64,000 nucleotides of DNA from Chlorobiota bacterium. Lineage in GTDB: Bacteria > Bacteroidota > Bacteroidia > Bacteroidales > JAADGE01. How positions within the stretch are numbered: position 1 is the first letter of the stretch; every line of letters starts with the position of its first letter. A model generated the notes under the pieces. It ran no database searches. It saw only the letters and a list, made by a program, of their open reading frames with translations, and was not told the origin of the DNA. The position numbers and the translations under genes were made by a program. Below are positions 13,379 through 61,644 of this stretch, in pieces. Location: assembly GCA_013152535.1 (NCBI GenBank), contig JAADGE010000055.1, forward strand, positions 466 to 64,465. Reading direction: 5' to 3'.

Positions 13379-13917
13379 GACGATTGCTTTTGATTATTTA
13401 TAAACATGACAGGTAAAATTTGCTCACTTTCAACTTGTTCGTTTTTTGATTTTGCCGGTGTCCAATCGGGCATATTTTTTATTAATTTTACTGCTTCCTT
13501 ATCAATTAACGGATTAATGCTTCGTACGATTTTTATATTTTTGATTTTTCCGTGTCGCGTAATTGTAAATTTTACATAAATGCGACCTTGAATGTTTTGT
13601 TTTTTTGCTTTTTCGGGATATTGTAAATTCTTTTTAAAATATTTTTGTAATGCAATTTCTCCGCCCGGAAATCGTGCCGGAGTATCAATGTTTAAATTTG
13701 CAAATGTGGGCAACGGTTTGATAATTAGCTTGTTATTAATGTTATTTGTGTCAATTTCAAGATTTATTTCAACAAAATTTCCCGTAATTTTATTTTTATT
13801 TTTGGTTTTGTAATTGAATGCTCCCAAAACTATCATCAATGAAATAATAATGCTTATTTGCAGCAATAAACCCCGATGTTGTTCTAATTTATTATTTTTG
13901 TATTTGTTGCCGTTCAT
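13345..13917 (-). CDS. TonB C-terminal-domain protein (copy 1, shorter, no Pro-rich linker)
   Basis: TM anchor plus ARFPGG...IQGRIYVKFTITRHGKI. Overlaps the start of copy 2 by 34 nt. Confidence 0.7.
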   Translation of the reverse strand: MNGNKYKNNKLEQHRGLLLQISIIISLMIVLGAFNYKTKNKNKITGNFVEINLEIDTNNINNKLIIKPLPTFANLNIDTPARFPGGEIALQKYFKKNLQYPEKAKKQNIQGRIYVKFTITRHGKIKNIKIVRSINPLIDKEAVKLIKNMPDWTPAKSKNEQVESEQILPVMFINNQKQSSWKRKKTTKQI

Positions 13918-13920
13918 TTT

Positions 13921-15252: not shown

Positions 15253-15611
15253 TTATTCTCACTTTTTTCAATTATTTTCATCATTTCTTCAATGTCTTTT
15301 TGGTCTAATTTTTTTTCTTTTATCATATATGAAACGATATTTTTATATGAATTATCGAAATAGCCGGATAAAACAGTTTTAAATATTTGTTTTCGATAGC
15401 GCGATTTTGAAATTTTAGGACTGTATTCGTATGTGTTACCGTATTGTTTATATTTTAAAAATCCTTTTTTTTCTAAAATTCTTACAATTGATGAAATTGT
15501 GTTATACGGCGGATTTTCAGGAAGTCTTTTGATTATGTCTTTTACAAAACCTTTTTTTATTTCCCAAAAAATCAGCATTATTTCCTCTTCTCTTTTTGTT
15601 AATTGTTCCAT
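15249..15611 (-). CDS. BlaI/MecI/CopY-family transcriptional repressor
   Basis: 120-aa winged-helix protein. Its stop overlaps the blaR1-like start by 4 nt. Confidence 0.85.
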   Translation of the reverse strand: MEQLTKREEEIMLIFWEIKKGFVKDIIKRLPENPPYNTISSIVRILEKKGFLKYKQYGNTYEYSPKISKSRYRKQIFKTVLSGYFDNSYKNIVSYMIKEKKLDQKDIEEMMKIIEKSENK

Positions 15612-15919: not shown

Positions 15920-18900
15920 TTATTTTTGCAGAATGATTTTAAAACTTAATGTTTTAGTTTCATTTTGTATTTTAATAAAATATATTCCTGCACCAAATCC
16001 TGTTAAATTTATTTCTTCTTTATTCGTAAAGGATTTTTCTTCTTTTATAATACTTCCGGTTATGTCTGTAATTATATAATGCAGTTCAACAGGTTTTGAA
16101 TTTGCAATAAAAAATCTACCTGTTGTCGGATTCGGATAGATATTGAAATCAGATTCAGATACATTTGAAATATCGGAACTTCCTTTAACTGTGAGAGTAT
16201 AAATATCAGACGTATTTGCTCCTGCAATGTCAGTTGCTTTAACTTTTATTTGAAAAACACCTGCATTTTCGGGTATTCCGGAGAATGTTTTTGTTTCGGT
16301 ATTAAAACTCAGCCATTCGGGGAGTTGATTGCCGTTTTCGGACTGTGCCGAATAAGTTAATAAATCTCCAAAGTCAATATCATTAAAAATATTATTCGGT
16401 ATTGTATAGGAATATAATTCTGATGTATATGTTTCCATATCAGGAATAGAATTTTCTACAAAAGGAGCATCATTTGTATTAATTACGGATAAATTAAATT
16501 CTTGATATCCTGTTGCACCCATTTTATCAAAAGCAAAGACTTTAATTGTTAAAATACCGACATCTTCATTTTTGGGAATACCTGAGAATGTCAATGTTTT
16601 GTTGTTAAAAGTAAGCCATTCCGGTAAATCGTTATCGTTTTCTAATTTTGCATAATAACCTGATATTTTATCATTTTTATCTGTTTCAATAAAAGAATTT
16701 TTCGGTAAAATAAAATTAAGTTCCCGGTCTTCAAAAACAGTTGTATCTTTTATTTGATTCAGAGCTTCGGGTGCATTATTTTTATAGAAATGCAATTCAA
16801 AACGGTCGGAAATAATTCCGGCATCGCAATAAAAAGAATAATTGTTAAGAGCATTTTCATTTAAATAAATTTCAACATTTTTTTGTTTGTCGATAAAATA
16901 AACGTGATTATTTTTGAAATTAAATTTATCTGCCGAAATTGTGTATGTTCCTGCTTGTTCTATTTTTACGGCTATAGGAACAATTAAATCGGCCATACTG
17001 TTTTCCGGTAATACATTTATCGAAAGCGGTGTTTTGTCTTTTTGACTTATTGAATATATATGCGGAACAGAAGCAATATTGCTGAATAATTTCAAGGCAT
17101 CAAAATCTCCGTCAAATCCCGAAGTTGCATTTGATTTAAAATACACAACCGCATAATCGGAATAACCGTTTGCCTGCATTTTAAGTCTTATGAAATTCGG
17201 TATATCTTCATTCGCATTATTTTTATTCGGAGATTTCAAATAATTTTGAGTTGAATGTACACGATTTGAATTATGCAATGAAAAGCCTGCCGAATTTGCC
17301 GTGGCATGAACAAAAAATGCCTGCATCGGAGCAATTTCGTTTGACAGACTAAGATTTCCGCCTTTTACTCCGTTTGCATAACTGGAATATTGTGTTCCGT
17401 CCCATACATAAATTCCGTCGTCTAAATTTGTTCTGCTGCTTTTAATTACATCCCAATCAATAGCTGAAGGGTAAGGATTTGCAACAAGATCCCACCCGTC
17501 ATAATAATTTGGGAGAGAACAGCTTACCTGATCGTTATTTGTGTATGCTAAACCGTTAATGGAAATATCCCCGGTATTCGGTGTTCCGATGAATGTTATT
17601 AATTGATTTTCATCCGTATAAAAAGCATATCCTGTTTTTGTTTTCATAGGATCATCGGTTGTTTGGTTCGGATATGCATAAACCCACCCCGAGACTAAAT
17701 TATCTGAATTAAAAGCACCTGCAGGAGCTGTTCCTGCATTTCCGTCTAAATCAAATGTTTCGTCATAAACATAGAAATTGGGATTAAAATTTCCGGATGA
17801 GTTTGATTGCGTAAATAAATCGCTCGAAGCATTTCCTCCGGATTGAATAGGAGAAGATACATAATGAAATTTATTTGCGGAAAAATAACGTTCAATATGA
17901 ACGGTTCCGCTTCCGGCAGTTGTTCCGTTATCAATAAATGATGCAGAGGCGGTTTCATCGGCAGGTGATTTTAATAAAAGCATTCCGTCATTTGTAAAAT
18001 CACCGTTTAATGTTAATGATTTTGCGGCATTAACTGTAACTGTTGCCGAACTTTGAATATCAAGTTTATGACAATGTGCTGCAACATTAATTTCAGGAAA
18101 TCTGTTGCCGACCGGATTTGTCGGAATTATTGCATCAGAACTTCCTGTAGGAACTGTTCCGGCTGACCAATTTCCGGCATCACTCCAAACAGTAGAAATA
18201 TTACCTTCCCAAGTATTGGTAATCAGTAATTGAGATGTGAGAGTAAATATATGATTTCCGTTTAATGCCGGACTTGTCGGGTTTGTTGTAACAGTTCCGT
18301 CAGTTGCTGAACCGCTTGCTGTTGCTGTAGAATGAGAAACTTCCCATCGGCTGTTTGCAGAAATCCATTCAGCTACCCGAAGATCATCTCTTTCTGTTGC
18401 AACTGAAGAAACTCCGCTCGAAGCATCCCACCTTAATTCGACATAAGACGAACTGCTTGCCGGACCATTTATTCTCCAAAACTCGTTTTCACTGACAACT
18501 TTAATCGGAGCAAGGAAATTTGCCGGATCATAACCGTCATTTAAAGGATTGTGATTGTAATATTCAGCTTGCCAATAATTTGATTGATCAATATTATCCA
18601 GAATTACATATCCGTATCTTGTATTATTTCCGACAGGAAAAAGAAATTTACCGCCAATTATAATATTTTTATTCAACGGACCGTCAACATAATTTCCCGA
18701 ACCGGCACCTGTAACAACTGTTTCATTTGTATTTTCTAATGTGAGAATGTTGGTTGTTGTTGTGTGAATAACACCGGATGTGAAATTCAGATTGTAATTA
18801 ATATCAACCGAACGAGATAATGTAAGTCCGGATGAATTATTCATTGTAAGATGATTGAATGCGTTTGTTCCCGTAAAACTGCTTGTTCCCAAAATGTTTT

Positions 18901-19855
18901 GAGCCGATGTACCGGCAAATTCAATAATGGCATCTGCTCCGAGACCGGCATCAAAAGTTCCGGCATTATATGTTATATCACCTCTTATTTTTATTGTTTG
19001 GTCAAATTCATTAATTACATCAGGAGAACTTGTTCCGTTATCGGAAAAAAGTAAATCACCTAATATTGTCAGAGTAAGATTCGGTAATTCTCTTTTGCCT
19101 GTACCGCTGAATGTTAAATTATTAACTTGTGTAATTTGACTTAAAACACAGTAATTTGTACTTCCTCCGAATTCAACTGTTCCGCCGCTTGCGGAGAAAA
19201 AATCTTCATAAAAGCCGGCAGGCAGACTGCCTCTTTCCGAATATAAAGTTCCGGTACCGGATACATTTCCTATTCGATTTCCGAAAGTTGTACCGACATC
19301 AAGTGTTCCCAGTATTTCTGTAGTATATGCCGATATATAATTAACAGCTGTTGTAACTCTGTCTCCGGTATATATTCTTACTCTTGCACCGTCAGGAATA
19401 TCGGGTAAGCCTAAAGAAGCAGGAAGTACCCATGTACCTGTTCCGTCATCAACACGCCATGTATCAGCTGTATGCCAATCTAAATTTGTAAAAGGACCGC
19501 CGCCGGCTACACCTTTTGAAACATACAAAGGTACTTGATCGGGTATGGCTCCGAGAAATGTTGAACCGTCAACACCGGCAGTATAATCACCGCTTATGTC
19601 AACATCCGATACATTAGAATAATCGAAAATAAGTTTTTTATTGGTTTCATCAAATTTACTGACATTACTGACATTATCGTATTTTACCCAATTTCCGGTT
19701 CCGTCGTTTAACAATTTTGCCGTTATGTAATCATAAACATCATAAGGTGCAGTAACTTTAACATCATTTTCATTATAATAAAATTCAGTTGTTCCGGAAA
19801 AATCCGTGAAGCCAGTTGCTGTTAAAACCCAATAATATTGTAAAACGTTATCCAT
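15920..19855 (-). CDS. C-terminal fragment (1311 aa from the first ATG) of a giant T9SS-secreted surface protein
   Basis: Two LPEWL(T/S)FN...TFSGIP cadherin-like/He_PIG-type repeats (about 16190-16760) and a T9SS CTD (FNIYPNPTTGRFFIAN...GIYFIKIQNETKTLSFKIILQK). There is no signal peptide, and the reading frame stays open upstream of the ATG into the preceding ORF. Confidence 0.85.
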   Translation of the reverse strand: MDNVLQYYWVLTATGFTDFSGTTEFYYNENDVKVTAPYDVYDYITAKLLNDGTGNWVKYDNVSNVSKFDETNKKLIFDYSNVSDVDISGDYTAGVDGSTFLGAIPDQVPLYVSKGVAGGGPFTNLDWHTADTWRVDDGTGTWVLPASLGLPDIPDGARVRIYTGDRVTTAVNYISAYTTEILGTLDVGTTFGNRIGNVSGTGTLYSERGSLPAGFYEDFFSASGGTVEFGGSTNYCVLSQITQVNNLTFSGTGKRELPNLTLTILGDLLFSDNGTSSPDVINEFDQTIKIRGDITYNAGTFDAGLGADAIIEFAGTSAQNILGTSSFTGTNAFNHLTMNNSSGLTLSRSVDINYNLNFTSGVIHTTTTNILTLENTNETVVTGAGSGNYVDGPLNKNIIIGGKFLFPVGNNTRYGYVILDNIDQSNYWQAEYYNHNPLNDGYDPANFLAPIKVVSENEFWRINGPASSSSYVELRWDASSGVSSVATERDDLRVAEWISANSRWEVSHSTATASGSATDGTVTTNPTSPALNGNHIFTLTSQLLITNTWEGNISTVWSDAGNWSAGTVPTGSSDAIIPTNPVGNRFPEINVAAHCHKLDIQSSATVTVNAAKSLTLNGDFTNDGMLLLKSPADETASASFIDNGTTAGSGTVHIERYFSANKFHYVSSPIQSGGNASSDLFTQSNSSGNFNPNFYVYDETFDLDGNAGTAPAGAFNSDNLVSGWVYAYPNQTTDDPMKTKTGYAFYTDENQLITFIGTPNTGDISINGLAYTNNDQVSCSLPNYYDGWDLVANPYPSAIDWDVIKSSRTNLDDGIYVWDGTQYSSYANGVKGGNLSLSNEIAPMQAFFVHATANSAGFSLHNSNRVHSTQNYLKSPNKNNANEDIPNFIRLKMQANGYSDYAVVYFKSNATSGFDGDFDALKLFSNIASVPHIYSISQKDKTPLSINVLPENSMADLIVPIAVKIEQAGTYTISADKFNFKNNHVYFIDKQKNVEIYLNENALNNYSFYCDAGIISDRFELHFYKNNAPEALNQIKDTTVFEDRELNFILPKNSFIETDKNDKISGYYAKLENDNDLPEWLTFNNKTLTFSGIPKNEDVGILTIKVFAFDKMGATGYQEFNLSVINTNDAPFVENSIPDMETYTSELYSYTIPNNIFNDIDFGDLLTYSAQSENGNQLPEWLSFNTETKTFSGIPENAGVFQIKVKATDIAGANTSDIYTLTVKGSSDISNVSESDFNIYPNPTTGRFFIANSKPVELHYIITDITGSIIKEEKSFTNKEEINLTGFGAGIYFIKIQNETKTLSFKIILQK

Positions 19856-19923: not shown

Positions 19924-22900
19924 TTAAAATAAGATAACCCGTTGTACTTGTATTGTACTTGTATTTTGTGTAATTGTAACAATTGCCGGTGTATATTTAT
20001 TTAATGCACCGCTGACTGATCCTACGGGAAAGGTAAAAGTTCCTGATCCTGACGGGAAGAGTTTTTTAACACCGTAGTCAGTAAATGAAACATTTGTTCC
20101 GATCATATTATTTATTCCGAACGGATTTGCTTCTTGTATTCGGCAATTAATACCGAGTGTTAAAATATTTCCGCCAATATTTAAAATTCCGGATTCTAAC
20201 TTTAAATATTCTGAAATTAACGGTGTATTTCCTACGGGAAGCACAATGCCGTTTCCGTTATTTATTGTTAATTTACCGTATGTTCCGCTTCCGGTCATTG
20301 TTTGTTGTGATGTTCCGACTAATGAAATTCCGTCTTCAATACCCGTTCCTCCGTAAGTATGTACGGCATCATTATTAATATTTCCGTAAACTTGAATTTC
20401 ATTGGCATTGTCGTTTAATGTTCCGGATTGCAGATCCAATATATTATCAATAACAATATCGGTCGTTCCGGAAGCAAGATTTAGGTTTGCTGTGTTTTGA
20501 TTTGTTAAATTCCAAAATGTTGTATTTCCGTTAATTTGCTGGTCGGAATTATTTTTAAAATAAGTTGTATTACCTCCGGCTGTGAATGTTCCTGCATTTG
20601 TAAAATCTCCGTAGCAATTCAAATCTAATCCGTTTGTTTTAAATTCGGTTCCGCCTTGAATATTTAATTCTCCGTTAAGAGTTAAAGGAATTGTCCACAT
20701 TTTTGCTTTCGGATTATTGGTACTTGTATTATCAAGGGTTAAATTTTGTAATGCAACGGTTGAATAAATACCGAATTCTTGATTTGCGGGTGTATCTCCG
20801 CTACCTAATGTAATTGTTGTTCCGGCTGATAAATTTGTTGTTTCGGGATCAAGATATAAACTTGCAAAAGTCGGATTTGTTTGTTGACGGACAATACTTA
20901 AACTACCGGCTGAATGTGTAAATGAACTTCCTGTATTTAAGATTTCAAAGACACCTCTGTTTTCTTCCGGAGCTGTATTTTTTCCGATAATAACAGTTCC
21001 GCCGCTTTGATTATATGTTAAAATTCCTTCGGTACTTGTAAGTCCTCTTCTGATTTGAGAACCGACAATTAATGAGCCGGAAGTTATTTCTAATGTTGCG
21101 TTTCCTGATGCCGAGTATTGAATGTAATTATTTCCGTTTGCCGTAGCCGGGAAATTTGCATCATCCATATTTACAATTCCGCCGCTTATGAGTAATTTAC
21201 CGTCGAGTAAAATTCCTGTATCATCACCTGAAACATTTACTTGTCCTTGTCTGATTTCGAGACAGGAGGAAGACGGGATATAAAAATTATCATTACCGGT
21301 GTTAATGTCAATATTAATTCCGGAATTATTAATTATCAGTGTTCCGTTTTGCAGTTCAACAGATTTCTGAATACCGACACCGTTTGTCGGACCGCCTAAA
21401 TTAAAATTATTATCAAAACTGAAAGAATAGGTTTGACTGTTTCCTTTATTTATAACAAATCGATAAAAATCAGCGGTATTACCGGCTAAAAAAGTATATG
21501 CGGCATTTTGCTCTCCCTGCAATTCCAGAATAGCATTGTTTCCGCCGGTATTATCTGAAAATAAATTGATTGTACCTTCTCTTTGTATCAGGTTTCCGGT
21601 TAAAATAATTTTGTGTTTTAAATTATTCGGACTTGTGTTTAAAACAGAAAGGTAGTTATTTGAAGATTGTGCCTGTCCGTCTCTGATTGTAATGTTTCCT
21701 TTTACCGTCAGTGTTCTGGCTGTACCGTCTGTTGAGAATTCAAATGCACCGTCTCTGTATCCGCCAACATAAAAGTTTCTGTCAACTAAGATATCGCCGT
21801 CTGCATCATTATCTGTTCTTATAACAGCACCGCCGTCAATTTTCATATCCCTTTTTACTTCAATGTCAACAGGAAAAATGAGGATTCTGTTGCCGACACC
21901 GGAAGAAGTATTTCCTTCTATTCTAAGATTCGGATATTCAGGATGATTCGGGAGTACGGTTATACCGTCTGCACGGTCGTGATAATAGAAATAGGCTTCG
22001 GTATTATTTACAAAATCTCCCATATCGGCAATTACTGTCGGGATGTTTGCAGGAGAAACTCTTTCGACAAAACCGCCGCGTCCCGAAATATAATTAAAGT
22101 TATGAGTTTGGGTTTCTTGTACATATACACGCGGATTCCAGGTTGTTCCGTCGCCGTCAAAAATAAGTGCGGCAATATTTATGTTATTGATATCACAAAG
22201 AATGGAGTGGTAGTCTCCGCCGCTGCCTCCGTTTGTGTTTCCTGTATCGTATCCTACACGGGCGATATCACCTGTTTGCGGGTATGTTCCTGTATTTGTG
22301 GAGCTGTTGTGAGATACGGTTGACCATACATTGGGGTCTGACCAATGATTACCTGTCCAACCGTTCCATAAGCGACTGTAGTAAACTCTGACGCTGCCGG
22401 TAAATCGGTTTGCAACACCGGCTGTATAATTTGCTTTTTCAAGTGTAAGCACATCAAAACTAATTCGGTTATTTGATGTATTAATGCTGCCGATTGTTCC
22501 TGATTGAGGTGCACGAGTAAACGGATCTTCATCCAATACTTTCCCTGCAATAAAATTTGCTTCATCCCCGGCATCATCATCAGAGTCATCATATACAAAG
22601 CGATAGATAACCGTCGGTAAAGTTGTAAAATCAGAATGTCCGACTCTCCAGTAATAAGACAGCAGATTTCCGCCGGCTAAATTCGTTGTTTGTAATTCTC
22701 CGTCAACCGGTCTTATTTGAATGTATCCGTCGTCGGTTGAGGCGGTTATACGTATTCTTACCGGTGTATATCTTGCTGTTCCGGTTTGTGTTCCGAGCGG
22801 CAAGCCAAAATCAGTATTACTGCTTATATTTCCGGGAATGTATAATTGAATTCCGCCGTCAGAAGCATTTGCATCGCTGAAAATCATTTTAGTTGTACTT

Positions 22901-25900
22901 CCGCCGGTATAGGAAAAATTGTTAAGAGTTGATTTTTGATGTAAATAGTCAACTTTTAATTTGTAGGTTTTAAGGTTTAAAAGTCCTCTGAAATAACCGA
23001 TTCTTTTGATATAAACGTTACTTCCGAGAGAAACAACAGCTCCGCCTTGCGGATTAAGCTTAAAATTACCGAGTTGTGCTCCGTCTTCTGTTTCTAATAC
23101 AGTATCATTATCTTTAAGCATAATATATGCGGTTAATTCTGTTGTGCCGGCAATATACACACCTAAAATTCCTGTTTTTTTAACTTGTACCGGTCCGAAA
23201 AGTCGAATGGACTGATGTCCCTGATTAAATGTTCCTTTTATAACATCAATGGTTCCTTGTACATTTATTAATCTGTTATAGTATTCTTGTGTTAAAGTTG
23301 TTTGAGTCGGATCTTTATTTGGGTCTCCTTTTAAAACAATTTCTGCACCGTTTGTTTTATTAACGGTCATATTCCATACATACAGTTCATAACCGTCATC
23401 AACATTATGTCCGATATATAAGGTATCACTTTTATCGCTGTTGAAAGTTAAAGTATTTGGTTTAGAAGAATCGTATAATAATCCATAGTTATGAGCACCT
23501 TGTTTTTGAGTGTTTTCAGCAATTGAAAAACCACCTCCTATTGTTATATCTTGTCCGTTGTGATTGAGGAAACAATTATCTTCGATTGTAAAATCATTTA
23601 AAACGACCAAAGGTTGAGCTGCCAAATCGGCATCGGCATTTCCGTTAATATTTGTTCCGGCATCCAAAAGATGATCGGTTGTGTTATCATTTGTGTTTCT
23701 GAATATGAGATTATAAAAAAGTGCTTTGGATGTAATTTTAAATGTATTACTTGTTCCGGCAATTTCTGCAATAACAGTTCCGCCGGTAACGTTAACATTT
23801 GCCGGGTCGGAAGCGATAAAAATTCCGCCTTGGTTTGTTGCGGTTCCGTTAGCGTCAAATATATGCAGGGTTCCTCCGGACATATTGAAAACATTTCCGG
23901 GATAAGTTAAGCTGAAATGATAATAACTGTTATTTGTAACGGCGGGGTTAATGATATTAACAGTTCCTCCGGATTGTATGTATCCGCCTACATTTGTCGA
24001 ACCATAAACGGAAGTTCTGATTTGATTTGTATTTACGATACCGCCTTCAATTTTTATTAATCCGTTAGCTCTGATTGTAATACCGCTGTTAATTTTTGCT
24101 TCAAGCAAACCGGAAGAAATTTGGATAATACCATAAGGAACAATTGCTGTTCCGGAATTTTTTTGAACGCTTCCTCCGGCAATCCATAAACGTGCAGCTT
24201 CTGAAATATTATAATTATTTACGGTATTTAATACGGGGATGTTGATGTTCGAACCTATTTTTACCGTTCCTTTTATTAATCCCAGAGCATTTGCATTGTT
24301 TGCAAGTTGAGATGTTGCCGAATGCCCTTGAGCTGCATATCCGAACAAGTTAAAATCAGCCGAAGCTGTTGCTTGAAGGGAGAGGATATAGGTTTTATCA
24401 TTTCCTTTATCAATTTCTATTCTGTAAAAATTTGTTGTACCGTTACATAAAACTTCCTGATTTGCATCGGGACTTAAAAAATTAGCATCCACAATTCCGT
24501 CAGTTGCTTCATTTGCATAATCGGCAGCTGTTCTGTTTGTAAATTTAACGGTTCCGTTATTTGTAAAATTCCCGTATATGTTAAATTGATGGCGTGCATT
24601 GCCTGTTCCGGTAAGAATTTGTCCGTTTGCTTGTATGCTGACATTGCCGGTTACGGTAAGATTTAGATTTGTTGTTGCAGAATTATCATTAATTTGAAAA
24701 ATACCGTTTTCAATAGTTAATCTGCCGTTTAAAGTATAATCGGCAAGCATTGTTAAAGTGTTTGCAGCATTATCCAAATTGATTTCCATATTAAAAAATG
24801 TGTGCGGTGTTGCAAGATTATATGAACCGCCTTGCCACACAACGGTTCCTTCACCTTGTCCTTTTGTTACAAAATCCGTTGCATCACCGAGCGGGAAATT
24901 ATCACTTGCTAATTTAATTCTTCCGCTTCCTTTAATCGTTGTAAAATTGTGACCGGAAGTGATGCCGAGTTGAAGAATTCCGTTAACGGTAATTCCTGCT
25001 GTTGTTTTATTGTTTGCAGAAACAGTAATTGTTTTACCTGTTTGTATGACAACTTTATCTTGAGACGCAGGAGTTTCATGACCGGGATTATTGGGTAATG
25101 CTCCGGCGGGATCAAGTGTCCAATATTCCCAATTATCCCAGTCTCCGCTTGCGAGAGCATACCAAGTTCTTCCGGCAATTCCTTCGATCGGACTGTTTGT
25201 TTCATCATCGGTTCCGATGGTGTAATAGCCGTTTTGTAAATCGGCATCGGCAACGTTAAAATACACTTGGTCGGCATCAAAACTTCCTTGTCCGGCAACT
25301 GTAACTTTTGTATATGATCCGGTTGCAGTGCTTCTGTATAATAAAACATAGTTAGCAACATTTGTCGGATATTGACCGTCTGTCAATGCTTCTTTAAAAT
25401 CAAAAATTAATTTTGCATCTATTCCGTCAGATGCAGTTTTTTCAATATACCATTGTCGGGCCCATGAAGCTTGAGTTACTGCGGGTAAATCTGCTCCGGT
25501 ATATGTTGTTGTTGAGTTATTGGCTGTATTATCATGTGCAAGCATCATATATTCGCCGTTTGCAAGAGTAGAATTCCATTCGTAAAGATATAAGCCGCCG
25601 GAACTTGTTTGATTTTGGCTGCCGTCAGTCTCTTTTCCTATGCCGGCAATATTATATACATAATTTGAGTTAAAATTTGCATCATTTCCGAATTTATTGT
25701 TTGAAGCAGTTGCAAAAGCTAAGTTGTATTTTTCGCTGAGATAATTTTCAACGATTAATCTTTGTGCTGAATTCAGAAAAGAGTTATACATTATTACTTC
25801 GGCAATCTCGCCCTGAAATGCTTGTCCTGCTGAATATCCGCCGTCGGGAGAATCTTGTTCGCCGCCGATTGCAAGACTTCCGCCTGAGGGAATTGAAACG

Positions 25901-26529
25901 CCGTTTTGAAAAGTTGCAGAATGAACAGGATCGCCGTTTTGATTAATGATTAAATTGCCGCCGCTGCTTTTCCATTTATGAGACATCATTTGCCAATTTC
26001 CGCTGTTAAAAGCATTTCCGGAAACGTTATTTCCGCCGTTGAGATAGGTTGTCAGCGAACTGTTATTGTATAAAAGAAACGCATTGTCTGTGCTTGAAGT
26101 GTTATAAGAAAGAAGACCGTCTCCGCTGTCGGTTGTTTTATAAACCATAAAAGTGGTAATACCGGAAGTGGGCATATCATTGAAAGGATTAATAACAATG
26201 CGGTTGTTTGTTTTAGAAAATTCTGCTCTCGGATGTCCGTTTAAATTGCTTGCATCATTCTGAAAAACAGGCGTAAAACCGGCAGTCGGTTGACTTAAAT
26301 TATTATTGTTGCCTGAAAGGTCAGTCCATGTTGCGATATCAGCACCATCAGTTAATCCCAAAGTGCCGGCATCAAGCCACAGAATATTTTTCGGTTGTCC
26401 GGAAGTTCCGGCGGCATTTCCGACACCGCCCGGACCTGTTTGAGCTAATATGGTATATGAGAAGCTCCAAAAAAATATCAGGAACAAAACTGTTGCAGTT
26501 TTTGTTATTTTTAAAAATAGATTTTTCAT
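19924..26529 (-). CDS. N-terminal fragment (2201 aa) of the giant surface protein: signal peptide, LamG/concanavalin-like domain, long Gly/Asn/Thr-rich beta-helix-like region
   Basis: Signal peptide MKNLFLKITKTATVLFLIFFWSFSYTILAQ. LamG-like block (...WQMMSHKWKSSGGNLIINQNG...GEIAEVIMYN, about 25700-26230). Ends prematurely in ...QVQRVILF* without a CTD. Confidence 0.85.
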   Translation of the reverse strand: MKNLFLKITKTATVLFLIFFWSFSYTILAQTGPGGVGNAAGTSGQPKNILWLDAGTLGLTDGADIATWTDLSGNNNNLSQPTAGFTPVFQNDASNLNGHPRAEFSKTNNRIVINPFNDMPTSGITTFMVYKTTDSGDGLLSYNTSSTDNAFLLYNNSSLTTYLNGGNNVSGNAFNSGNWQMMSHKWKSSGGNLIINQNGDPVHSATFQNGVSIPSGGSLAIGGEQDSPDGGYSAGQAFQGEIAEVIMYNSFLNSAQRLIVENYLSEKYNLAFATASNNKFGNDANFNSNYVYNIAGIGKETDGSQNQTSSGGLYLYEWNSTLANGEYMMLAHDNTANNSTTTYTGADLPAVTQASWARQWYIEKTASDGIDAKLIFDFKEALTDGQYPTNVANYVLLYRSTATGSYTKVTVAGQGSFDADQVYFNVADADLQNGYYTIGTDDETNSPIEGIAGRTWYALASGDWDNWEYWTLDPAGALPNNPGHETPASQDKVVIQTGKTITVSANNKTTAGITVNGILQLGITSGHNFTTIKGSGRIKLASDNFPLGDATDFVTKGQGEGTVVWQGGSYNLATPHTFFNMEINLDNAANTLTMLADYTLNGRLTIENGIFQINDNSATTNLNLTVTGNVSIQANGQILTGTGNARHQFNIYGNFTNNGTVKFTNRTAADYANEATDGIVDANFLSPDANQEVLCNGTTNFYRIEIDKGNDKTYILSLQATASADFNLFGYAAQGHSATSQLANNANALGLIKGTVKIGSNINIPVLNTVNNYNISEAARLWIAGGSVQKNSGTAIVPYGIIQISSGLLEAKINSGITIRANGLIKIEGGIVNTNQIRTSVYGSTNVGGYIQSGGTVNIINPAVTNNSYYHFSLTYPGNVFNMSGGTLHIFDANGTATNQGGIFIASDPANVNVTGGTVIAEIAGTSNTFKITSKALFYNLIFRNTNDNTTDHLLDAGTNINGNADADLAAQPLVVLNDFTIEDNCFLNHNGQDITIGGGFSIAENTQKQGAHNYGLLYDSSKPNTLTFNSDKSDTLYIGHNVDDGYELYVWNMTVNKTNGAEIVLKGDPNKDPTQTTLTQEYYNRLINVQGTIDVIKGTFNQGHQSIRLFGPVQVKKTGILGVYIAGTTELTAYIMLKDNDTVLETEDGAQLGNFKLNPQGGAVVSLGSNVYIKRIGYFRGLLNLKTYKLKVDYLHQKSTLNNFSYTGGSTTKMIFSDANASDGGIQLYIPGNISSNTDFGLPLGTQTGTARYTPVRIRITASTDDGYIQIRPVDGELQTTNLAGGNLLSYYWRVGHSDFTTLPTVIYRFVYDDSDDDAGDEANFIAGKVLDEDPFTRAPQSGTIGSINTSNNRISFDVLTLEKANYTAGVANRFTGSVRVYYSRLWNGWTGNHWSDPNVWSTVSHNSSTNTGTYPQTGDIARVGYDTGNTNGGSGGDYHSILCDINNINIAALIFDGDGTTWNPRVYVQETQTHNFNYISGRGGFVERVSPANIPTVIADMGDFVNNTEAYFYYHDRADGITVLPNHPEYPNLRIEGNTSSGVGNRILIFPVDIEVKRDMKIDGGAVIRTDNDADGDILVDRNFYVGGYRDGAFEFSTDGTARTLTVKGNITIRDGQAQSSNNYLSVLNTSPNNLKHKIILTGNLIQREGTINLFSDNTGGNNAILELQGEQNAAYTFLAGNTADFYRFVINKGNSQTYSFSFDNNFNLGGPTNGVGIQKSVELQNGTLIINNSGINIDINTGNDNFYIPSSSCLEIRQGQVNVSGDDTGILLDGKLLISGGIVNMDDANFPATANGNNYIQYSASGNATLEITSGSLIVGSQIRRGLTSTEGILTYNQSGGTVIIGKNTAPEENRGVFEILNTGSSFTHSAGSLSIVRQQTNPTFASLYLDPETTNLSAGTTITLGSGDTPANQEFGIYSTVALQNLTLDNTSTNNPKAKMWTIPLTLNGELNIQGGTEFKTNGLDLNCYGDFTNAGTFTAGGNTTYFKNNSDQQINGNTTFWNLTNQNTANLNLASGTTDIVIDNILDLQSGTLNDNANEIQVYGNINNDAVHTYGGTGIEDGISLVGTSQQTMTGSGTYGKLTINNGNGIVLPVGNTPLISEYLKLESGILNIGGNILTLGINCRIQEANPFGINNMIGTNVSFTDYGVKKLFPSGSGTFTFPVGSVSGALNKYTPAIVTITQNTSTIQVQRVILF
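19943..19964. repeat. perfect 11-bp tandem duplication (tgtacttgtat x2) at the junction of the two giant-protein ORFs
   Basis: Read directly: positions 19943-19953 are identical to 19954-19964. Confidence 0.95.
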
Positions 26530-33571: not shown

Positions 33572-33889
33572 TCAATTATTCATTTGTCTGTCTAAACGCT
33601 CGGCATCTCTTATTCTGCCTTTTAATATATTAATGTAAGTTCTTGCATCTTTCAGATGATAATCGGCATATGCTTTTTGAGCCCAATCTAAAGCGATATC
33701 AAATTTTCCGAATATTTCAGAGGCTAATGCCATATTGTAACAAGCACGACCGGCAATTTTATAATCGGGGTCGTTAACATATTGTTTCCATATATCTGCT
33801 GCATCTTCCCATTGTTTTGCATTAACTTTATATTTTGCATCTTTAAAGTCATCATTTCCTTTAACGTAATAATGTCTTGAAACCCAAAT
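33572..33889 (-). pseudogene. in-frame continuation (105 codons, TPR-like) of the lipoprotein gene downstream of the internal TGA
   Basis: Hand translation of the same frame gives IWVSRHYYVKGNDDFKDAKYKVNAKQWEDAADIWKQYVNDPDYKIAGRACYNMALASEIFGKFDIALDWAQKAYADYHLKDARTYINILKGRIRDAERLDRQMNN*. The span 34618-33572 is exactly 349 codons. Confidence 0.75.
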
Positions 33890-49747: not shown

Positions 49748-49837
49748 TTCTGAATTTTGTCCTTTCAATTTTCAATTTTCTGCAAAACTATATAAATCAT
49801 CTCCTTAATTGTATGAAGTTTTTATTTCATACCGGCG

Positions 49838-49845
49838 TAACTTTG
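49838..49845 (+). promoter_or_regulatory. -7 promoter box (TAACTTTG) upstream of copA
   Basis: Matches TAnnTTTG and lies 24 nt before the ATG at 49869. Confidence 0.5.
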
Positions 49846-49868
49846 CCGTAAATAAAAACAATACGATT

Positions 49869-51320
49869 ATGAAACATACATATAAAATAGACGGCATGAC
49901 ATGCGTCGGGTGTGAAACGGACGTTAAGAATGCTTTAAGTAACCTGAATGAAATAAACAAAGTTAAGGTTGACTTAAAAAAATCGGAAGTCGAAATTGAA
50001 ATGTCGCAACACATTTCGCTTGAGAAGTTGCAGGAAACTCTAATGAAAGCCGGTTTGCACTATACAATTCATTTGCCCGGCGATGAGCCCGTTCATAAAC
50101 ACGTTCATAAACAGCATATAAAACAAGTTGATTTTAACGGAAACGGTATTTTTTATTGCCCCATGCGATGCGAAGGCGATAAAACTTATGATAAATCCGG
50201 AGCTTGCCCCGTTTGCGGAATGGATTTAATCGAGCAAAAGCAGGTAAGTACAAAAGCAGAATATACCTGTCCTATGCACCCGGAAATTATTAAAGATGCT
50301 CCCGGTGCCTGCCCGAAATGCGGAATGGATTTAATTCCGAGAGAACCGGAAGAAAGTGAAGAAGATAAAACGTATTTAGGACTGTTAAAGAAAATGAAAA
50401 TTGCGGTAATTTTTACCCTCCCGATTTTTCTTATTGCAATGGCTGATATTTTGCAAAAAAATCCGTTGTTAGATTTGATGAACCAACAAAATTGGAATAT
50501 CGTACAGTTGATATTATCTCTGCCGGTTGTGTTTTATGCAACAAGAATGTTCTTCGAACGTGCTTGGAGGTCAATTGTTACTTGGAATTTGAATATGTTT
50601 ACACTTATAGGAATAGGTGCCGGTGTAGCTTTTATTTTCAGTATTTTTGCATTATTCTTTCCTGATATTTTCCCGGATCAGTTTAAAACTGACAGTGGAA
50701 CGGTATATGTTTATTTTGAGGCAGTTACAGTAATCCTCACACTTGTTCTTCTCGGTCAGTTATTAGAAGCCAAGGCACACAGCAGAACAAGCGGTGCCAT
50801 AAAAGAACTGATGAAGTTGGCACCTACGCAGGCAACGGTAATAGTTGACGGAGAAGAAAAAGTTATTTCAATACACGACATAAAACAAGGAGATTTAATA
50901 CGTGTAAAACCCGGAGAAAAAATTCCCGTTGACGGAAAAATTACCGAAGGCAGCACTCATATTGACGAAAGTATGATTACCGGAGAACCTGTTCCCGCAG
51001 ACAAAACAATAGGCGACAAAGTCAGTTCCGGAACCATTAACGGCAATAAATCATTTGTAATGATTGCTGAAAAAGTCGGGTCGGATACGTTGCTTTCGCA
51101 AATTATAAAAATGGTTAACGAAGCAAGTCGCTCGCGTGCTCCTATCCAAAAACTCGCCGATAAAATATCAAAATATTTTGTGCCGATTGTAGTCCTTATT
51201 GCCGCATCAACTTTTGCCGTATGGGCAATTTTCGGTCCCGAACCGGCTTATGTTTATGCTTTTGTAAACGCAGTTGCCGTTTTAATCATTGCTTTGCTTG
51301 CCCGTGTGCATTGGGATTAG
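49869..51320 (+). CDS. copA: copper-translocating P1B-type ATPase, N-terminal fragment (frameshifted)
   Basis: HMA domain (GMTCVGC), two Cys-rich CPxCGMDL metal-binding modules, TM helices and the TGE actuator motif (ITGEPVP). The frame is lost at 51290-51299, immediately before the expected CPC motif. Confidence 0.9.
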   Translation: MKHTYKIDGMTCVGCETDVKNALSNLNEINKVKVDLKKSEVEIEMSQHISLEKLQETLMKAGLHYTIHLPGDEPVHKHVHKQHIKQVDFNGNGIFYCPMRCEGDKTYDKSGACPVCGMDLIEQKQVSTKAEYTCPMHPEIIKDAPGACPKCGMDLIPREPEESEEDKTYLGLLKKMKIAVIFTLPIFLIAMADILQKNPLLDLMNQQNWNIVQLILSLPVVFYATRMFFERAWRSIVTWNLNMFTLIGIGAGVAFIFSIFALFFPDIFPDQFKTDSGTVYVYFEAVTVILTLVLLGQLLEAKAHSRTSGAIKELMKLAPTQATVIVDGEEKVISIHDIKQGDLIRVKPGEKIPVDGKITEGSTHIDESMITGEPVPADKTIGDKVSSGTINGNKSFVMIAEKVGSDTLLSQIIKMVNEASRSRAPIQKLADKISKYFVPIVVLIAASTFAVWAIFGPEPAYVYAFVNAVAVLIIALLARVHWD

Positions 51321-52372
51321 CAACACCTATGGCTGTGATGGTCGGTGTCGGAAAAGGTGCACAATCCGGAATTTTAATAAAAAATGCCGAAGCTATTGAA
51401 AAAATGAATAAAATTAATGTGCTTATTACCGATAAAACAGGGACACTTACCGAAGGAAAACCTTCGCTTGAAAAACTTATTGCTCTAAATCCCGCTGATG
51501 AAAAAAATTTGCTGATTAAAGCTGCATCTTTGAATACACAAAGCGAGCATCCCTTGGCGGAAGCAGTCGTAAAATATGCAAAAAATGAAAAACTTGATTT
51601 GAAAAATGTTGAGAATTTTGAAGCTGTTGCCGGAAAAGGTGTTACAGGAATCGCAGGTAATGAGAATATTGCTGTAGGAAATTCAAAATTAATGTCGGAA
51701 ATTAAAGCAGAAATCCCTAAAACACTTCAAACACAGGTCGAAACAGAACAAAAGCTCGGAAAAACTGTTTCTTACATTGCCGTAAACAACAAAGTTCTCG
51801 GATTTATTGTCATCAGCGACAAAATTAAAAAAACAAGTCAAAATGCCGTCAAAGAACTTATCGAACAAGGAGTTGAAGTAATCATGCTCACCGGAGATAA
51901 CAAAAATACGGCAAAAGCCGTTGCCGATGAATTAAATATAACAGGCTTTAAAGCAGAATGTTTGCCCGAAGATAAGCTTAATGAAATAAAACGTTTACAA
52001 AATGAAGGTAAAATTGTTGCAATGGCAGGCGACGGTATTAATGACGCTCCTGCATTGGCACAGTCCGACATCGGAATTGCCATGGGAACCGGAACTGACG
52101 TTGCCATTGAAAGCGGAGAAATAACACTTATGAAAGGCGATTTAAACGGTATTGTAAAAGCAAAAAAATTAAGTCATGCAATTATGAAAAATATCAAACA
52201 AAATTTATTCTTTGCTTTTGTTTATAACGTTCTTGGTGTTCCTGTTGCAGCCGGCGTATTATTTCCGGTATTCGGTTTGCTGCTCTCACCGATGATTGCA
52301 GCAGCAGCTATGAGTTTCAGTTCGGTTTCCGTAATCTCAAATTCATTACGATTGAGAAATTTAAAACTTTAA
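51221..52372 (+). CDS. copA: copper-translocating P1B-type ATPase, C-terminal fragment (the real coding part of this frame starts at about 51300)
   Basis: CPCALGLATP, DKTGTLT, MLTGDN and GDGINDAPAL motifs, in a frame shifted by +2 relative to the N-terminal fragment. Confidence 0.9.
   Translation: MGNFRSRTGLCLCFCKRSCRFNHCFACPCALGLATPMAVMVGVGKGAQSGILIKNAEAIEKMNKINVLITDKTGTLTEGKPSLEKLIALNPADEKNLLIKAASLNTQSEHPLAEAVVKYAKNEKLDLKNVENFEAVAGKGVTGIAGNENIAVGNSKLMSEIKAEIPKTLQTQVETEQKLGKTVSYIAVNNKVLGFIVISDKIKKTSQNAVKELIEQGVEVIMLTGDNKNTAKAVADELNITGFKAECLPEDKLNEIKRLQNEGKIVAMAGDGINDAPALAQSDIGIAMGTGTDVAIESGEITLMKGDLNGIVKAKKLSHAIMKNIKQNLFFAFVYNVLGVPVAAGVLFPVFGLLLSPMIAAAAMSFSSVSVISNSLRLRNLKL
51290..51299. repeat. 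perfect 5-bp tandem duplication (tgctt x2) inside copA
   Basis: Read directly: positions 51290-51294 are identical to 51295-51299. Confidence 0.95.
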
Positions 52373-57231: not shown

Positions 57232-57405
57232 TGTAATTACTTTATTGTAAGTTGTTTTTATTCCCTTTTTTGTACAAGCATCATAAGTTGTACCTCGAAA
57301 ATTACAATTTACACTTCAATTTTTATTTCTTGTTCAATTCAGAAATAAATAAATAAAACATTGTATATTAGCACAATATATTATTCACTTATAAAACTCT
57401 TTATC

Positions 57406-57789
57406 ATGAACTATTACACAAACAAAACTGTCGATACCGACATAGAAAAAGCAACCGAATTAATAAAAGCAGAACTTCAAAAAGAAGGTTTCGGAATAGT
57501 AACACAATTTGACGTAAATAAAGCACTGAAAGAAAAACTGGATTTGGATTTTCGCCCATACAGAATTTTGGGTGCATGCAATCCGCCTTTTGCTCTTAAA
57601 TCAATTAATGCAGAAGATAAAATCGGAACATTATTACCCTGTAATGTTATGTTGCAGGAAGAAAACGGTAAAACCGAAATAGCAATTATCAATCCTGTTG
57701 CAATGATGCAATCGGTTGAAAACGATGAAATGCTCAAAATTGCAGAGGAAATTGCAGAGAAATTGAACAAGGCATTATCAAAAGTCTAA
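57406..57789 (+). CDS. DUF302 domain protein
   Basis: EGFGIVTQFDVNKALKEKLDLDFRPYRILGACNP is a typical DUF302 core. The start is taken at internal ATG 57406 (MNYYTNK). Confidence 0.75.
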   Translation: MNYYTNKTVDTDIEKATELIKAELQKEGFGIVTQFDVNKALKEKLDLDFRPYRILGACNPPFALKSINAEDKIGTLLPCNVMLQEENGKTEIAIINPVAMMQSVENDEMLKIAEEIAEKLNKALSKV

Positions 57790-57828
57790 TGCCTCAACCT
57801 AATATCTAACATCTCAAATATATCTAAC

Positions 57829-60800
57829 ATGTTAAATAAAATAATAAAATTTTTCCTCGAAAATAAGCTTGTAACATTTATGTTTCTTGCCATATTTATC
57901 GCTTGGGGAATTTCTTCGTCGCCGTTTGGGTGGGATACTTTTTTACCGTCCGACCCGGTACCGGTTGATGCCATCCCCGATATAGGAGAAAATCAACAAA
58001 TCGTTTATACGGAATGGTCGGGACGTTCACCGCGTGATATCGAAGATCAAATTTCATATCCGCTTACAACGGCATTACTCGGTATTCCGGGTGTAAAAAC
58101 AATAAGAAGTAATTCTATTTTCGGTTTATCAAGTATCTATTTAATTTTTGAAGACGGTGTCGATTTTTATTGGAGTCGTACAAGAATACTTGAGAAACTG
58201 AATTCTTTACCGCCGGGTACTTTACCCGATAAAGTCAAACCGGCTCTCGGACCTGATGCCACGGCACTCGGTCAAATATATTGGTACACACTTGAAGGCA
58301 GAGACAAAAACGGCAAACCTGCGGGCGGTTGGGATCCGCAGGAGCTCAGGACTTTGCAGGATTTTTATGTTCGTTACGGACTGACTTCCGCAAAGGGGGT
58401 TTCCGAAGTTGCTTCAATCGGAGGATTTGTGAAAGAGTACCAAATTGACATTGACCCGAATGCAATGAAAGCATACGGTGTAAATGTGTCGCAAATTATT
58501 AATGCCGTTAAGAAAAGTAATCTCGACATCGGAGCAAGAACAATTGAATTTAATAAGGTTGAATACCTTGTCAGAGCTTTGGGATACATCAAAAATCTGA
58601 GTGATTTGGAGGAAAGTGTTGTAGCTGTTCATAAAAATATACCCGTAAGATTAAAAGATGTGGCAAAAATCTCTTTCGGTCCGGCAACTCGAAGAGGAGG
58701 GCTTGATAAAGGCGGTTCGGAAGCTGTAGGCGGCGTTGTTGTTGCTCGTTACGGTGCGAATCCGATGGAAGTTATCAAAAATTTGAAAGAAAAAATCAAA
58801 GAAATTTCGCCCGGACTGCCGAGCAAAACTCTTGCAGACGGTACGGTTTCAAAAGTTACGATTGTACCATTTTACGACCGAACCGGTTTAATAAAAGAGA
58901 CACTCGGAACACTTGAAGAAGCACTTACACTTGAAATTCTTATCAGTATTATAGTGATATTAATTTTAGTAATGAATTTACGGGCATCGTTCTTAATCTC
59001 AAGTTTATTGCCGATTGGTGTTTTGATGACATTTATTGTGATGCGGCGTTTCGGTGTTGATGCAAATATTGTTGCATTATCAGGTATTGCAATAGCAATA
59101 GGTGTAATGGTTGATGTGGGAATAGTCTTTACCGAAAACATCATCCGGCATCTCGAAATGGCAAAGAATATCGGAGCAAAAGGTAAGCAATTAGTTAAAG
59201 TAATTTACGAAGGAACAACAGAAGTTGCCGGAGCCGTTATTACGGCACTTTCAACAACCATTGTCAGTTTCTTACCGGTATTTGCTATGCAGGCAGCCGA
59301 AGGAAAATTATTTCGCCCTTTGGCATTCACAAAAACGTTTGCAATGATTTCGGCATTAGTTATCGGTTTAATGTTTATTCCTTTGTTGGCAAACCTTGTT
59401 TTTTCAATCAAACCGTCCGACAAATTAAGAAAGTATATTTCAAACGGAATTTTGATTGTTACCGGTATTGTTTTGGCAATTCTTGCGAAATCAGTGATAG
59501 CTCTTGCATTAGTCATCATTGGCTTAAACAATATATTCTCATACAAATGGTCTGAGAAAAGGAAAAAATATACAAATTACATTAATATCTTTATTACATT
59601 AAGTATAGTAATCTTTTTCTTAACACGCGAGTGGATGCCGCTCGGAGCACAAAACAGCCTGACTTTCAATTACATATTTGTAATGTCTTTGATTGGAGTT
59701 GTATTGGGAACTTTATTAACAGTCGTTCATTATTATAAACAAATTTTGAAATGGAGTTTAGAAAATAAAAAGAAATTTCTTACAATTCCTGTAATTGTTA
59801 TTTTATTCGGAATATTATCTTGGCTCGGAGTCAATAAAATGTTCGGTTTTATGCCCGATTTTGTCAAGAATACAAAAACTTGGAATTCTTTTGCGGAAAC
59901 ATTTCCGGGCACGGGAAAAGAATTTATGCCGAGTTTAGATGAAGGGTCATTTTTGCTTATGCCGACAACAATGCCGCATTCCGGCGTTCAGGAAAATCTG
60001 GATGTTATCAGGTTGCTTGATAAAAGAGTAAACAGCATTCCCGAAGTTGAAAATGTCGTGGGAAAATGGGGAAGGGCAAATTCTGCTCTCGATCCGGCAC
60101 CGACTTCAATGTTTGAAAATATCATAAATTATAAAACAGAATATATTGTTGACGAAGACGGATACAAAAGACGGTTTAAAGTTAATTCGGACGGAGCATA
60201 CGTTTTAAAAGACGGGTCAACTTATAATCCGAAAAAAGAAGATTTCAGAGTAATTGAAAAATCAGAACTCATTCCGGATGACAGCGGCAAATATTTCCGT
60301 CAATGGCGACCTGAAATAAAATCAACAGATGATATTTGGAAAGAAATTGTAAGTAAATCAAATATTCCAGGTTTAACTTCTGCACCGAAATTGCAACCCA
60401 TTCAAACACGTCTTGTAATGTTGCAAACCGGAATGCGAGCACCTATGGGAATAAAAGTTTTCGGTCCCGACCTTGAAACAATTGAGAAAACGGCTTATGA
60501 AATAGAACATCAACTTAAATTCGTAAAAGGTGTAAAAGCATCGTCTGTTTTTGCCGACAGGGTTGTAGGTAAACCTTATATTGAACTGGAAATCAAGCGT
60601 AAAGCAATAGCACGTTACGGACTTACTATAAAAGATTTACAAACAACTTTGGCAACAGCAATCGGAGGAATGCCTCTTACTTCCACAGTTGAGGGCAGGG
60701 AACGCTTCCCTGTGCGTGTACGTTATGCTCGCGAACTCAGAGATAATCCGGATGAGTTAAAGAAAATTCTGATACCGACAAAAAGCGGTGTTCAAATTCC

Positions 60801-61644
60801 ATTGGGAGAACTTGTTGATGTAAAATACAAAAGAGGTCCGCAACTTATTAAAAGTGAAAATACATTTCTTGTCGGTTATGTAATTTTCGATAAAAAAGAC
60901 GGTTTTGCAGAAGTTGATGTTGTTGAAGATGCACAAAAATATCTTAAAGAAAAAATTAAAAGCGGAGAACTGATTATTCCGGCAGGTGTAAATTATAAAT
61001 TTACAGGAAATTATGAAAATCAAGTACGTGCAAGTAAACGCTTGCTTCTTGTTGTTCCGATTTCTTTAATCTTAATTTTCTTGATTCTATATTTTCAATT
61101 CGGGAAAGTACAACCGTCATTAATGGTCTTTTCAGGAATATTTGTTGCTTTTGCCGGTGGTTTTATTATGATATGGCTTTACGGTCAATCATGGTTTTTG
61201 AATTTCTCTGTCGGCGGAATGAATATGCGAGATATGTTTAATATGCATACGATTAACTTAAGCGTTGCTGTTTGGGTAGGGTTTATTGCTCTTTTCGGTA
61301 TTGCAACCGATGACGGAGTAATTGTAGGAACTTATTTGAAGCAAGTTTTTGAACGTAACAAACCTACAACGGTTGCAGAAGTAAGAAATTCTGTAATTGA
61401 AGCGGGTTCAAAACGTGTTCGTCCGGCAATGATGACTGCTGCAACAGCAATAATTGCTCTAATTCCGGTACTTACATCAACAGGTAAAGGTTCTGATATT
61501 ATGGTTCCTATGGCAATTCCCTCTTTCGGAGGAATGATAATTCAGGTAATGACCATGTTTGTTGTTCCGGTGCTCTACAGTATGTGGCAAGAAGGAAAAC
61601 TTAAAAAAAATAAAATACATAACACTGATTCGAATGGTTTTTAA
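57829..61644 (+). CDS. heavy-metal efflux RND permease (CusA/CzcA family), 1271 aa
   Basis: N-terminus IIKFFLENKLVTFMFL and RND hallmarks throughout (…GENQQIVYTEW…, …ATDDGVIV…). Longer than the roughly 1040-aa canonical members. Confidence 0.9.
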   Translation: MLNKIIKFFLENKLVTFMFLAIFIAWGISSSPFGWDTFLPSDPVPVDAIPDIGENQQIVYTEWSGRSPRDIEDQISYPLTTALLGIPGVKTIRSNSIFGLSSIYLIFEDGVDFYWSRTRILEKLNSLPPGTLPDKVKPALGPDATALGQIYWYTLEGRDKNGKPAGGWDPQELRTLQDFYVRYGLTSAKGVSEVASIGGFVKEYQIDIDPNAMKAYGVNVSQIINAVKKSNLDIGARTIEFNKVEYLVRALGYIKNLSDLEESVVAVHKNIPVRLKDVAKISFGPATRRGGLDKGGSEAVGGVVVARYGANPMEVIKNLKEKIKEISPGLPSKTLADGTVSKVTIVPFYDRTGLIKETLGTLEEALTLEILISIIVILILVMNLRASFLISSLLPIGVLMTFIVMRRFGVDANIVALSGIAIAIGVMVDVGIVFTENIIRHLEMAKNIGAKGKQLVKVIYEGTTEVAGAVITALSTTIVSFLPVFAMQAAEGKLFRPLAFTKTFAMISALVIGLMFIPLLANLVFSIKPSDKLRKYISNGILIVTGIVLAILAKSVIALALVIIGLNNIFSYKWSEKRKKYTNYINIFITLSIVIFFLTREWMPLGAQNSLTFNYIFVMSLIGVVLGTLLTVVHYYKQILKWSLENKKKFLTIPVIVILFGILSWLGVNKMFGFMPDFVKNTKTWNSFAETFPGTGKEFMPSLDEGSFLLMPTTMPHSGVQENLDVIRLLDKRVNSIPEVENVVGKWGRANSALDPAPTSMFENIINYKTEYIVDEDGYKRRFKVNSDGAYVLKDGSTYNPKKEDFRVIEKSELIPDDSGKYFRQWRPEIKSTDDIWKEIVSKSNIPGLTSAPKLQPIQTRLVMLQTGMRAPMGIKVFGPDLETIEKTAYEIEHQLKFVKGVKASSVFADRVVGKPYIELEIKRKAIARYGLTIKDLQTTLATAIGGMPLTSTVEGRERFPVRVRYARELRDNPDELKKILIPTKSGVQIPLGELVDVKYKRGPQLIKSENTFLVGYVIFDKKDGFAEVDVVEDAQKYLKEKIKSGELIIPAGVNYKFTGNYENQVRASKRLLLVVPISLILIFLILYFQFGKVQPSLMVFSGIFVAFAGGFIMIWLYGQSWFLNFSVGGMNMRDMFNMHTINLSVAVWVGFIALFGIATDDGVIVGTYLKQVFERNKPTTVAEVRNSVIEAGSKRVRPAMMTAATAIIALIPVLTSTGKGSDIMVPMAIPSFGGMIIQVMTMFVVPVLYSMWQEGKLKKNKIHNTDSNGF

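Follow-up and report, generated by a model that had tools for sequence, protein, structure and literature searches.

On the evidence of sequence comparison, the 2201-aa and 1311-aa open reading frames (ORFs) on the minus strand of the DNA examined here (a stretch of 64 kb, referred to as the window) are the two parts of one ancestral gene for a T9SS cargo protein of about 3530 aa, which is interrupted by an 11-bp microduplication, and are not two natural genes. On balance, we think it somewhat more likely than not that the interruption is a real, recent and unprogrammed loss-of-function lesion of an ordinary kind. Lesions of this kind are already known, and the biological significance of this one was overstated in the initial annotation of the window.

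The duplication and the two reading frames

The plus strand carries TGTACTTGTAT as a perfect back-to-back pair (Table 1), in the context ...cccgt TGTACTTGTAT TGTACTTGTAT tttgtg.... Tandem Repeats Finder places the repeat at 19942-19965, with a period of 11, 2.2 copies and a 100% match. The extra 0.2 copy means that a microhomology of 2 nt flanks the 11-bp unit, and the coding strand across the duplication reads AA-TACAAGTAC-AA-TACAAGTAC-AA. The 2201-aa ORF ends at a premature TAA (19924-19926), its final 9 residues (IQVQRVILF) being an out-of-frame tail. The second frame of the giant gene is -1 relative to the first and overlaps it by about 70 nt; the 1311-aa ORF within this second frame (15920..19855, minus strand) starts at the first ATG, at 19855, above which a further 47 codons are open. 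With one copy deleted in silico, the frame runs through 3532 codons to its stop as one uninterrupted ORF and reads ...TITQNTSTTGYLILKPADE.... The duplication, the two ORFs and their fusion had been described in the initial annotation, and we were able to reproduce the repeated pair (both from the sequence and with Tandem Repeats Finder), every number given for the ends of the two ORFs and the open frame above the ATG, and the restoration of an uninterrupted 3,532-codon ORF.

A null model for tandem duplications was obtained from simulated sequences in which the trinucleotide content was kept. The simulations predict 0.10 perfect duplications of period 11 per 64-kb window, or 0.11 for periods of at least 11. 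The duplication coincides exactly with the point at which the giant gene changes frame, and this position is a stronger argument against chance than the simulated expectation.

The domains of the protein are divided between the two ORFs. Only the 2201-aa ORF begins with a signal-peptide-like sequence, and only the 1311-aa ORF has a T9SS C-terminal sorting domain (CTD), a type A domain that lies at the extreme C-terminus and scores above the curated cut-offs of both Pfam and NCBIfam. Only in the repaired gene, and in the orthologues from loci L003 and L004 described below, do the putative signal peptide and the CTD lie on one polypeptide. The domain layout suggested previously is thus broadly upheld, with the type A CTD standing as proposed, the LamG domain becoming a Pfam Pentaxin domain (which we take to be a member of the same lectin-fold clan as LamG) and the cadherin-like repeats becoming Pfam He_PIG domains. 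Domain positions also agree with the earlier description of an N-terminal product that has a putative signal peptide and no CTD, and of a C-terminal product for which the reverse is the case.

Searches of Pfam and NCBIfam gave no family for the approximately 2800 central residues of the giant protein. A module of about 100-170 aa (F.FP.G...YTP...I...G.I...P...HP...L.YYW) recurs in this central part, at aa 1215-1302 and about 2140-2310 of the merged protein; it is kept in all homologues and has no Pfam family. The giant gliding adhesin SprB of Bacteroidota, likewise secreted by the T9SS, is another very large and repetitive protein that starts with a signal peptide and ends in a T9SS sorting domain. 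However, SprB has a type B CTD whereas the CTD found here is of type A (TIGR04183), and the comparison drawn here is one of layout.

Table 1. Positions of the duplication, the giant gene and its domains, and other altered genes in the window
Feature	Position	Strand	Remarks
Duplication, copy 1	19943..19953	-	TGTACTTGTAT on the plus strand
Duplication, copy 2	19954..19964	-	removal of either copy gives the 3532-codon ORF
N-terminal fragment ORF, 2201 aa	19924..26529	-	ends ...TITQNTSTIQVQRVILF followed by stop
C-terminal open frame, 1358 codons	15920..19996	-	upper limit set by the stop at 19997-19999
Putative Sec signal peptide, MKNLFLKITKTATVLFLIFFWSFSYTILA/Q	26443..26529	-	judged by eye from the sequence
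Pentaxin domain, aa 120-256 of the first ORF	25762..26172	-	PF00354, 61.8 bits (cut-off 25)
He_PIG putative Ig domain, better-scoring of two stretches (the other just upstream)	16187..16468	-	PF05345, 104 bits, 2 stretches
T9SS type A C-terminal sorting domain	15926..16141	-	PF18962, 50.5 bits (cut-off 27); TIGR04183, 48.3 bits (cut-off 23)
Second perfect tandem duplication in the giant gene, 9 bp, in frame, adds NVS	19656..19676	-	specific to the window in comparison with three orthologues
CopA-type P1B copper ATPase (copA), split ORFs 49809..51320 and 51221..52372	49809-52372	+	break at 51289-51298
Perfect 12-bp tandem duplication, CGTTCATAAACA x2, in frame	50090-50113	+	His-rich N-terminal region of copA; reads VHKH VHKQ
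M1 zinc metallopeptidase carrying a T9SS CTD of its own, cut off by the window start	1-1618	+	two frame changes
DUF6340 lipoprotein-like gene, in-frame TGA at 33890-33892	33572-34618	-	Pfam profile match

Homologues across the junction

A protein database search, in which the query was a 700-aa segment centered on the repaired junction, returned 17 homologues. All 14 homologues that were aligned (32-76% identity) are contiguous through the junction. The closest of them, P0001, aligns without a gap (TQNSSATGYIIAKPADE versus TQNTSTTGYLILKPADE in the repaired protein), and within 30 positions of the junction there are invariant residues both upstream (F, P, G, Y and P) and downstream (P and W). 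A tblastn scan of species-representative genomes found a single frame over the junction at 9 of 9 loci, and the internal paralogue of the junction module (aa 1215-1302) is contiguous as well. At the DNA level, six orthologous sequences have one copy each, reading CAA AAT xCA AGx xCx ACx GGx, and in the alignment the window differs from them by a clean insertion of 11 nt.

The closest genome found is that of a Bacteroidetes MAG (L003), which has an uninterrupted ORF of 3506 aa at the syntenic position. Residues 1-3532 of the repaired window protein align to residues 1-3506 of L003 with 76.8% identity, rising to 84% in the junction segment. Ten flanking genes are colinear between the two. Eight of these are full-length matches with an aa identity of 88-97%, a ninth is 87% identical over 106 of 120 residues, and the tenth has a partial match only. 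With colinear flanks that consist mostly of such full-length matches, the L003 ORF is the true orthologue. A second locus, L004, has an intact ORF of 3456 aa. The initial annotation had allowed for homologues that are naturally two genes with the same boundary; the 14 proteins, the 9 genome loci and the internal paralogue are all unbroken at the junction, and a natural two-gene organization is ruled out by these contiguous homologues, by the intact L003 and L004 ORFs and by the fact that the break bisects a conserved module.

The arrangement is that of a frameshift pseudogene. Both fragments are colinear with one intact orthologue, the indel that separates them is not a multiple of three, the ORF is whole apart from this one indel, and full-length orthologues span the break. 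Nothing essential sets the window gene apart from this class, although the indel is an 11-bp microduplication and not a homopolymer change. An annotation of the window should give the 2201-aa and 1311-aa ORFs as one frameshifted gene, and the same treatment applies to at least three other genes of the window, namely, those for the M1 peptidase, the DUF6340 protein and CopA.

The relationship of the frames, with the downstream frame at -1 relative to the upstream frame and an overlap of about 70 nt, might also be read as a functional split, in which programmed -1 ribosomal frameshifting generates the full-length protein or in which two natural polypeptides are made. We attach very little probability to this reading. 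A slippery heptamer of the canonical form X_XXY_YYZ was sought in the upstream frame of the overlap and none was found, while the frameshift is absent from all orthologues, with L003 and L004 having single ORFs and a further locus, L007, having one frame at the equivalent site. Neither the bisection of a conserved module nor a downstream product that has no signal peptide would be expected of a functional split. Programmed frameshifting was therefore rejected because of the absent slippery site and the lack of conservation of the shift, and on these sequence features it appears very unlikely.

Interruptions, each at a different position, were encountered among the giant-gene homologues of other public MAGs. 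L007 has one in-frame TGA (9038-9040) aligned to a conserved Gly (GNATLEISS-stop-VLTVGSQ versus ...ITSGSLIVGSQ), the giant-gene homologue of L001 is garbled over a short stretch that includes two stops (about 9590-9640) and that of L002 has a frameshift (about 8145-8170). Among the six full-length loci compared, including that of the window, the giant gene is intact only in L003 and L004. A GldD-type lipoprotein is present at the L002 locus. The giant protein has a lower identity to L003 than most of the flanking genes (window 8645-28687), which suggests that this surface protein evolves faster than its neighbors.

Other lesions and the origin of the duplication

Besides the 11-bp duplication, the window has at least four further disruptive lesions in otherwise intact genes. 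The break in copA reads ATCA-TTGCT-TTGCT-TGCCCG, an apparent 5-bp tandem duplication at the CPC motif; removal of one TTGCT regains the canonical ...VLIIACPCALGLATP... motif, and after this repair the protein gives one unbroken alignment (130-830) to Legionella CopA (3rfu_A, E = 2e-236). Two insertions are present in the M1 peptidase gene, one of 1 nt near 283-287 and one of 2 nt (CG) near 671-674, the second of which parts HELAHQWF from GDYVT...WLNEGFA. Once repaired, this protein also aligns in one stretch (26-363), to 6a8z_A, over both frameshift sites. Reading through the in-frame TGA of the DUF6340 gene gives a match to positions 1-257 of the 258 in the profile at 221.6 bits, as against 129.5 bits for the truncated ORF. 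The M1 peptidase is the second CTD-bearing protein in the window. A hidden in-frame stop was also suspected between ORFs 57349..57789 and 57790..61644, which are in the same frame; from the translations read by eye, they look like two separate genes, the former probably for a small protein and the latter for a putative RND-type pump with its own N-terminus.

All four frameshifts in the window are insertions. The recent insertions have lengths of 1, 2, 5, 9, 11 and 12 nt, two of the six being multiples of three, which matches the expectation in the absence of selection. About 50 other genes of the window are intact and there are no long-degraded regions. Perfect tandem duplications with a period of at least 8 are in modest excess (7 in the window versus 3.7 expected), and for a perfect duplication of period 12 the expectation is 0.03 per window. 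A genome-wide duplication-prone signature was tested for and proved weak, with this modest excess in the window and no such perfect tandem duplications in the closest relative, L003. The giant gene makes up 17% of the window and, given five lesions, its probability of being hit is about 0.6; with five lesions and a target of this size, a hit in the giant gene needs no special explanation. The earlier view of this lesion as special is therefore not borne out, given that it shares the 64-kb window with four or more other disruptive lesions and that a hit is expected from target size.

For a free-living bacterium, about five disruptive lesions in 64 kb, each in a gene that is otherwise intact, are many, and a density of this order is as compatible with technical error as with very recent mutation. 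It is possible, though less likely in our view, that the 11-bp duplication is an artefact of sequencing, assembly or polishing; the extra 11 nt would then have arisen in consensus building or contig joining, and the 3532-aa gene would be intact in the organism, with a single copy of the unit. This explanation draws on the occurrence of two M1 frameshifts, the copA 5-bp duplication, the 11-bp duplication and an in-frame TGA within one window, on the finding that every frameshift is an insertion in an otherwise intact gene and on indel lengths that look unselected. In addition, giant-gene homologues are broken at various positions in other public long-read-style assemblies (L001 and L002), and the Illumina-assembled closest relative, L003 (a k141_ contig), is free of such a lesion. 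However, to our knowledge, perfect tandem duplications of 5 to 12 nt, such as the 5-, 9-, 11- and 12-nt duplications seen here, are not typical read or consensus errors with either long-read or Illumina data, the usual long-read error being one of homopolymer length. About 50 other genes are intact despite the AT-rich and homopolymer-rich nature of the window, the in-frame TGA is a substitution that an indel artefact does not explain, and the spacings of the lesions (389, 289 and 1193 nt) have no regular polishing-window period. Exact look-ups of six window proteins (the two fragments and four intact neighbors) found no independent copy of the species. Metagenome contigs gave no match either to a gapped DNA pattern, with 5-35 nt between the flanks to fit one to three copies, or in a protein-guided scan.

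We infer that the duplication is present in the DNA of the organism rather than in the assembly only, and an ordinary loss-of-function mutation is the explanation that we prefer. The ancestral gene would have encoded, behind a putative Sec signal peptide, a lectin domain of the pentaxin/LamG-like type, a repetitive modular region of about 2800 aa, two He_PIG Ig-like domains and a CTD of type A. The 13-nt stretch AA-TACAAGTAC-AA may have undergone an 11-bp tandem microduplication in this lineage, the likely mechanism being replication slippage on the 2-nt microhomology. The insertion causes a +2 frameshift within a conserved module, with a stop 9 codons on. The N-terminal product is predicted to keep the signal peptide and to lose the CTD, which is described in PMC8545088 as the outer membrane translocation signal of the T9SS, while a product made from the internal ATG would have the CTD and no signal peptide. 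As the signal peptide and the CTD would be on separate products, surface display is likely to be lost. The gene was probably hit mainly through its very large target size. No further stop is present in 10.6 kb of AT-rich DNA, and this speaks for a recent lesion.

If the duplication is real, the largest T9SS surface protein can no longer be displayed by this strain, and the lesion matters only for a description of the surface of that strain. The cluster of lesions should be taken as a quality flag for the whole assembly, ahead of any conclusions about pseudogenization or phase variation.

Reversibility and comparison with known systems

Duplication and precise excision of the 11-mer could act as an on/off switch for display of the giant surface protein, but we consider such a switch unlikely. 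The idea has some appeal, as the duplication is a perfect tandem one inside the ORF of a surface protein, the gene has no secondary damage and loss of one unit restores the gene exactly. There is also a precedent in Streptococcus pneumoniae, in which the capsule genes cap3A, cap8E and tts undergo phase variation through spontaneous tandem duplication (Waite et al., 2001, 2003; cited as references 33 and 28 in PMC4022640). As in the pneumococcal capsule genes, a perfect tandem duplication within the ORF inactivates a surface structure, and its precise loss would restore function. In the pneumococcus, however, switching was seen experimentally, whereas no allele variation was seen here; the host is an uncultured-type Bacteroidales relative; and the window also carries lesions in nonsurface genes.

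Several of our results weigh against a switch. There are only two copies of the unit, and the six orthologues are single-copy and have no repeat tract, and hence this is not a conserved hypermutable locus. Comparable lesions are carried by genes of a housekeeping type, those for the copA-like ATPase and the M1 peptidase, which makes selection for switching needless as an explanation. The size of the giant gene, together with the five lesions, is sufficient to account for the hit, and the scans of metagenome contigs revealed no alternative allele and no match at any copy number from one to three. The potentially reversible slippage put forward in the initial annotation is, with a two-copy tract and single-copy orthologues, a formal possibility only.

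The contingency loci of Haemophilus, Neisseria and Campylobacter, which are based on simple sequence repeats (SSRs) (reviewed in PMC11868660), also produce frameshifts in surface proteins through changes in repeat copy number. In contrast to the 11-nt unit present twice in the window, the repeats of those loci are short units in long tracts, which have copy numbers above the compositional expectation and are conserved across strains. The window gene was examined as an SSR-type contingency locus and rejected, the tract consisting of two copies and the six orthologues being single-copy.

A broader proposal is that small perfect tandem duplications (+1, +2, +5 and +11, together with the in-frame +9 and +12) are inactivating genes of this lineage or clone in a burst, and that the 11-bp duplication is a "pre-mutation" state which can revert, as in the pneumococcal capsule genes. 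We judge this to be quite improbable. If it were true, the genes hit would include two for T9SS cargo proteins and one for a copper ATPase, among others, and an unusual duplication-biased mutational process, or a defect in replication or repair, would be operating in an environmental Bacteroidales.

Directly downstream of the giant gene (12716-15611, minus strand) are genes for a BlaI-like repressor (Penicillinase_R), a BlaR1-like M56 peptidase and two TonB_C proteins. One of the TonB_C genes (12716-13378) has partial matches only in L003. The BlaR1-like M56 peptidase is fused to an M23 peptidase domain, and the arrangement of BlaI/BlaR1-like and TonB_C genes is kept in L003.
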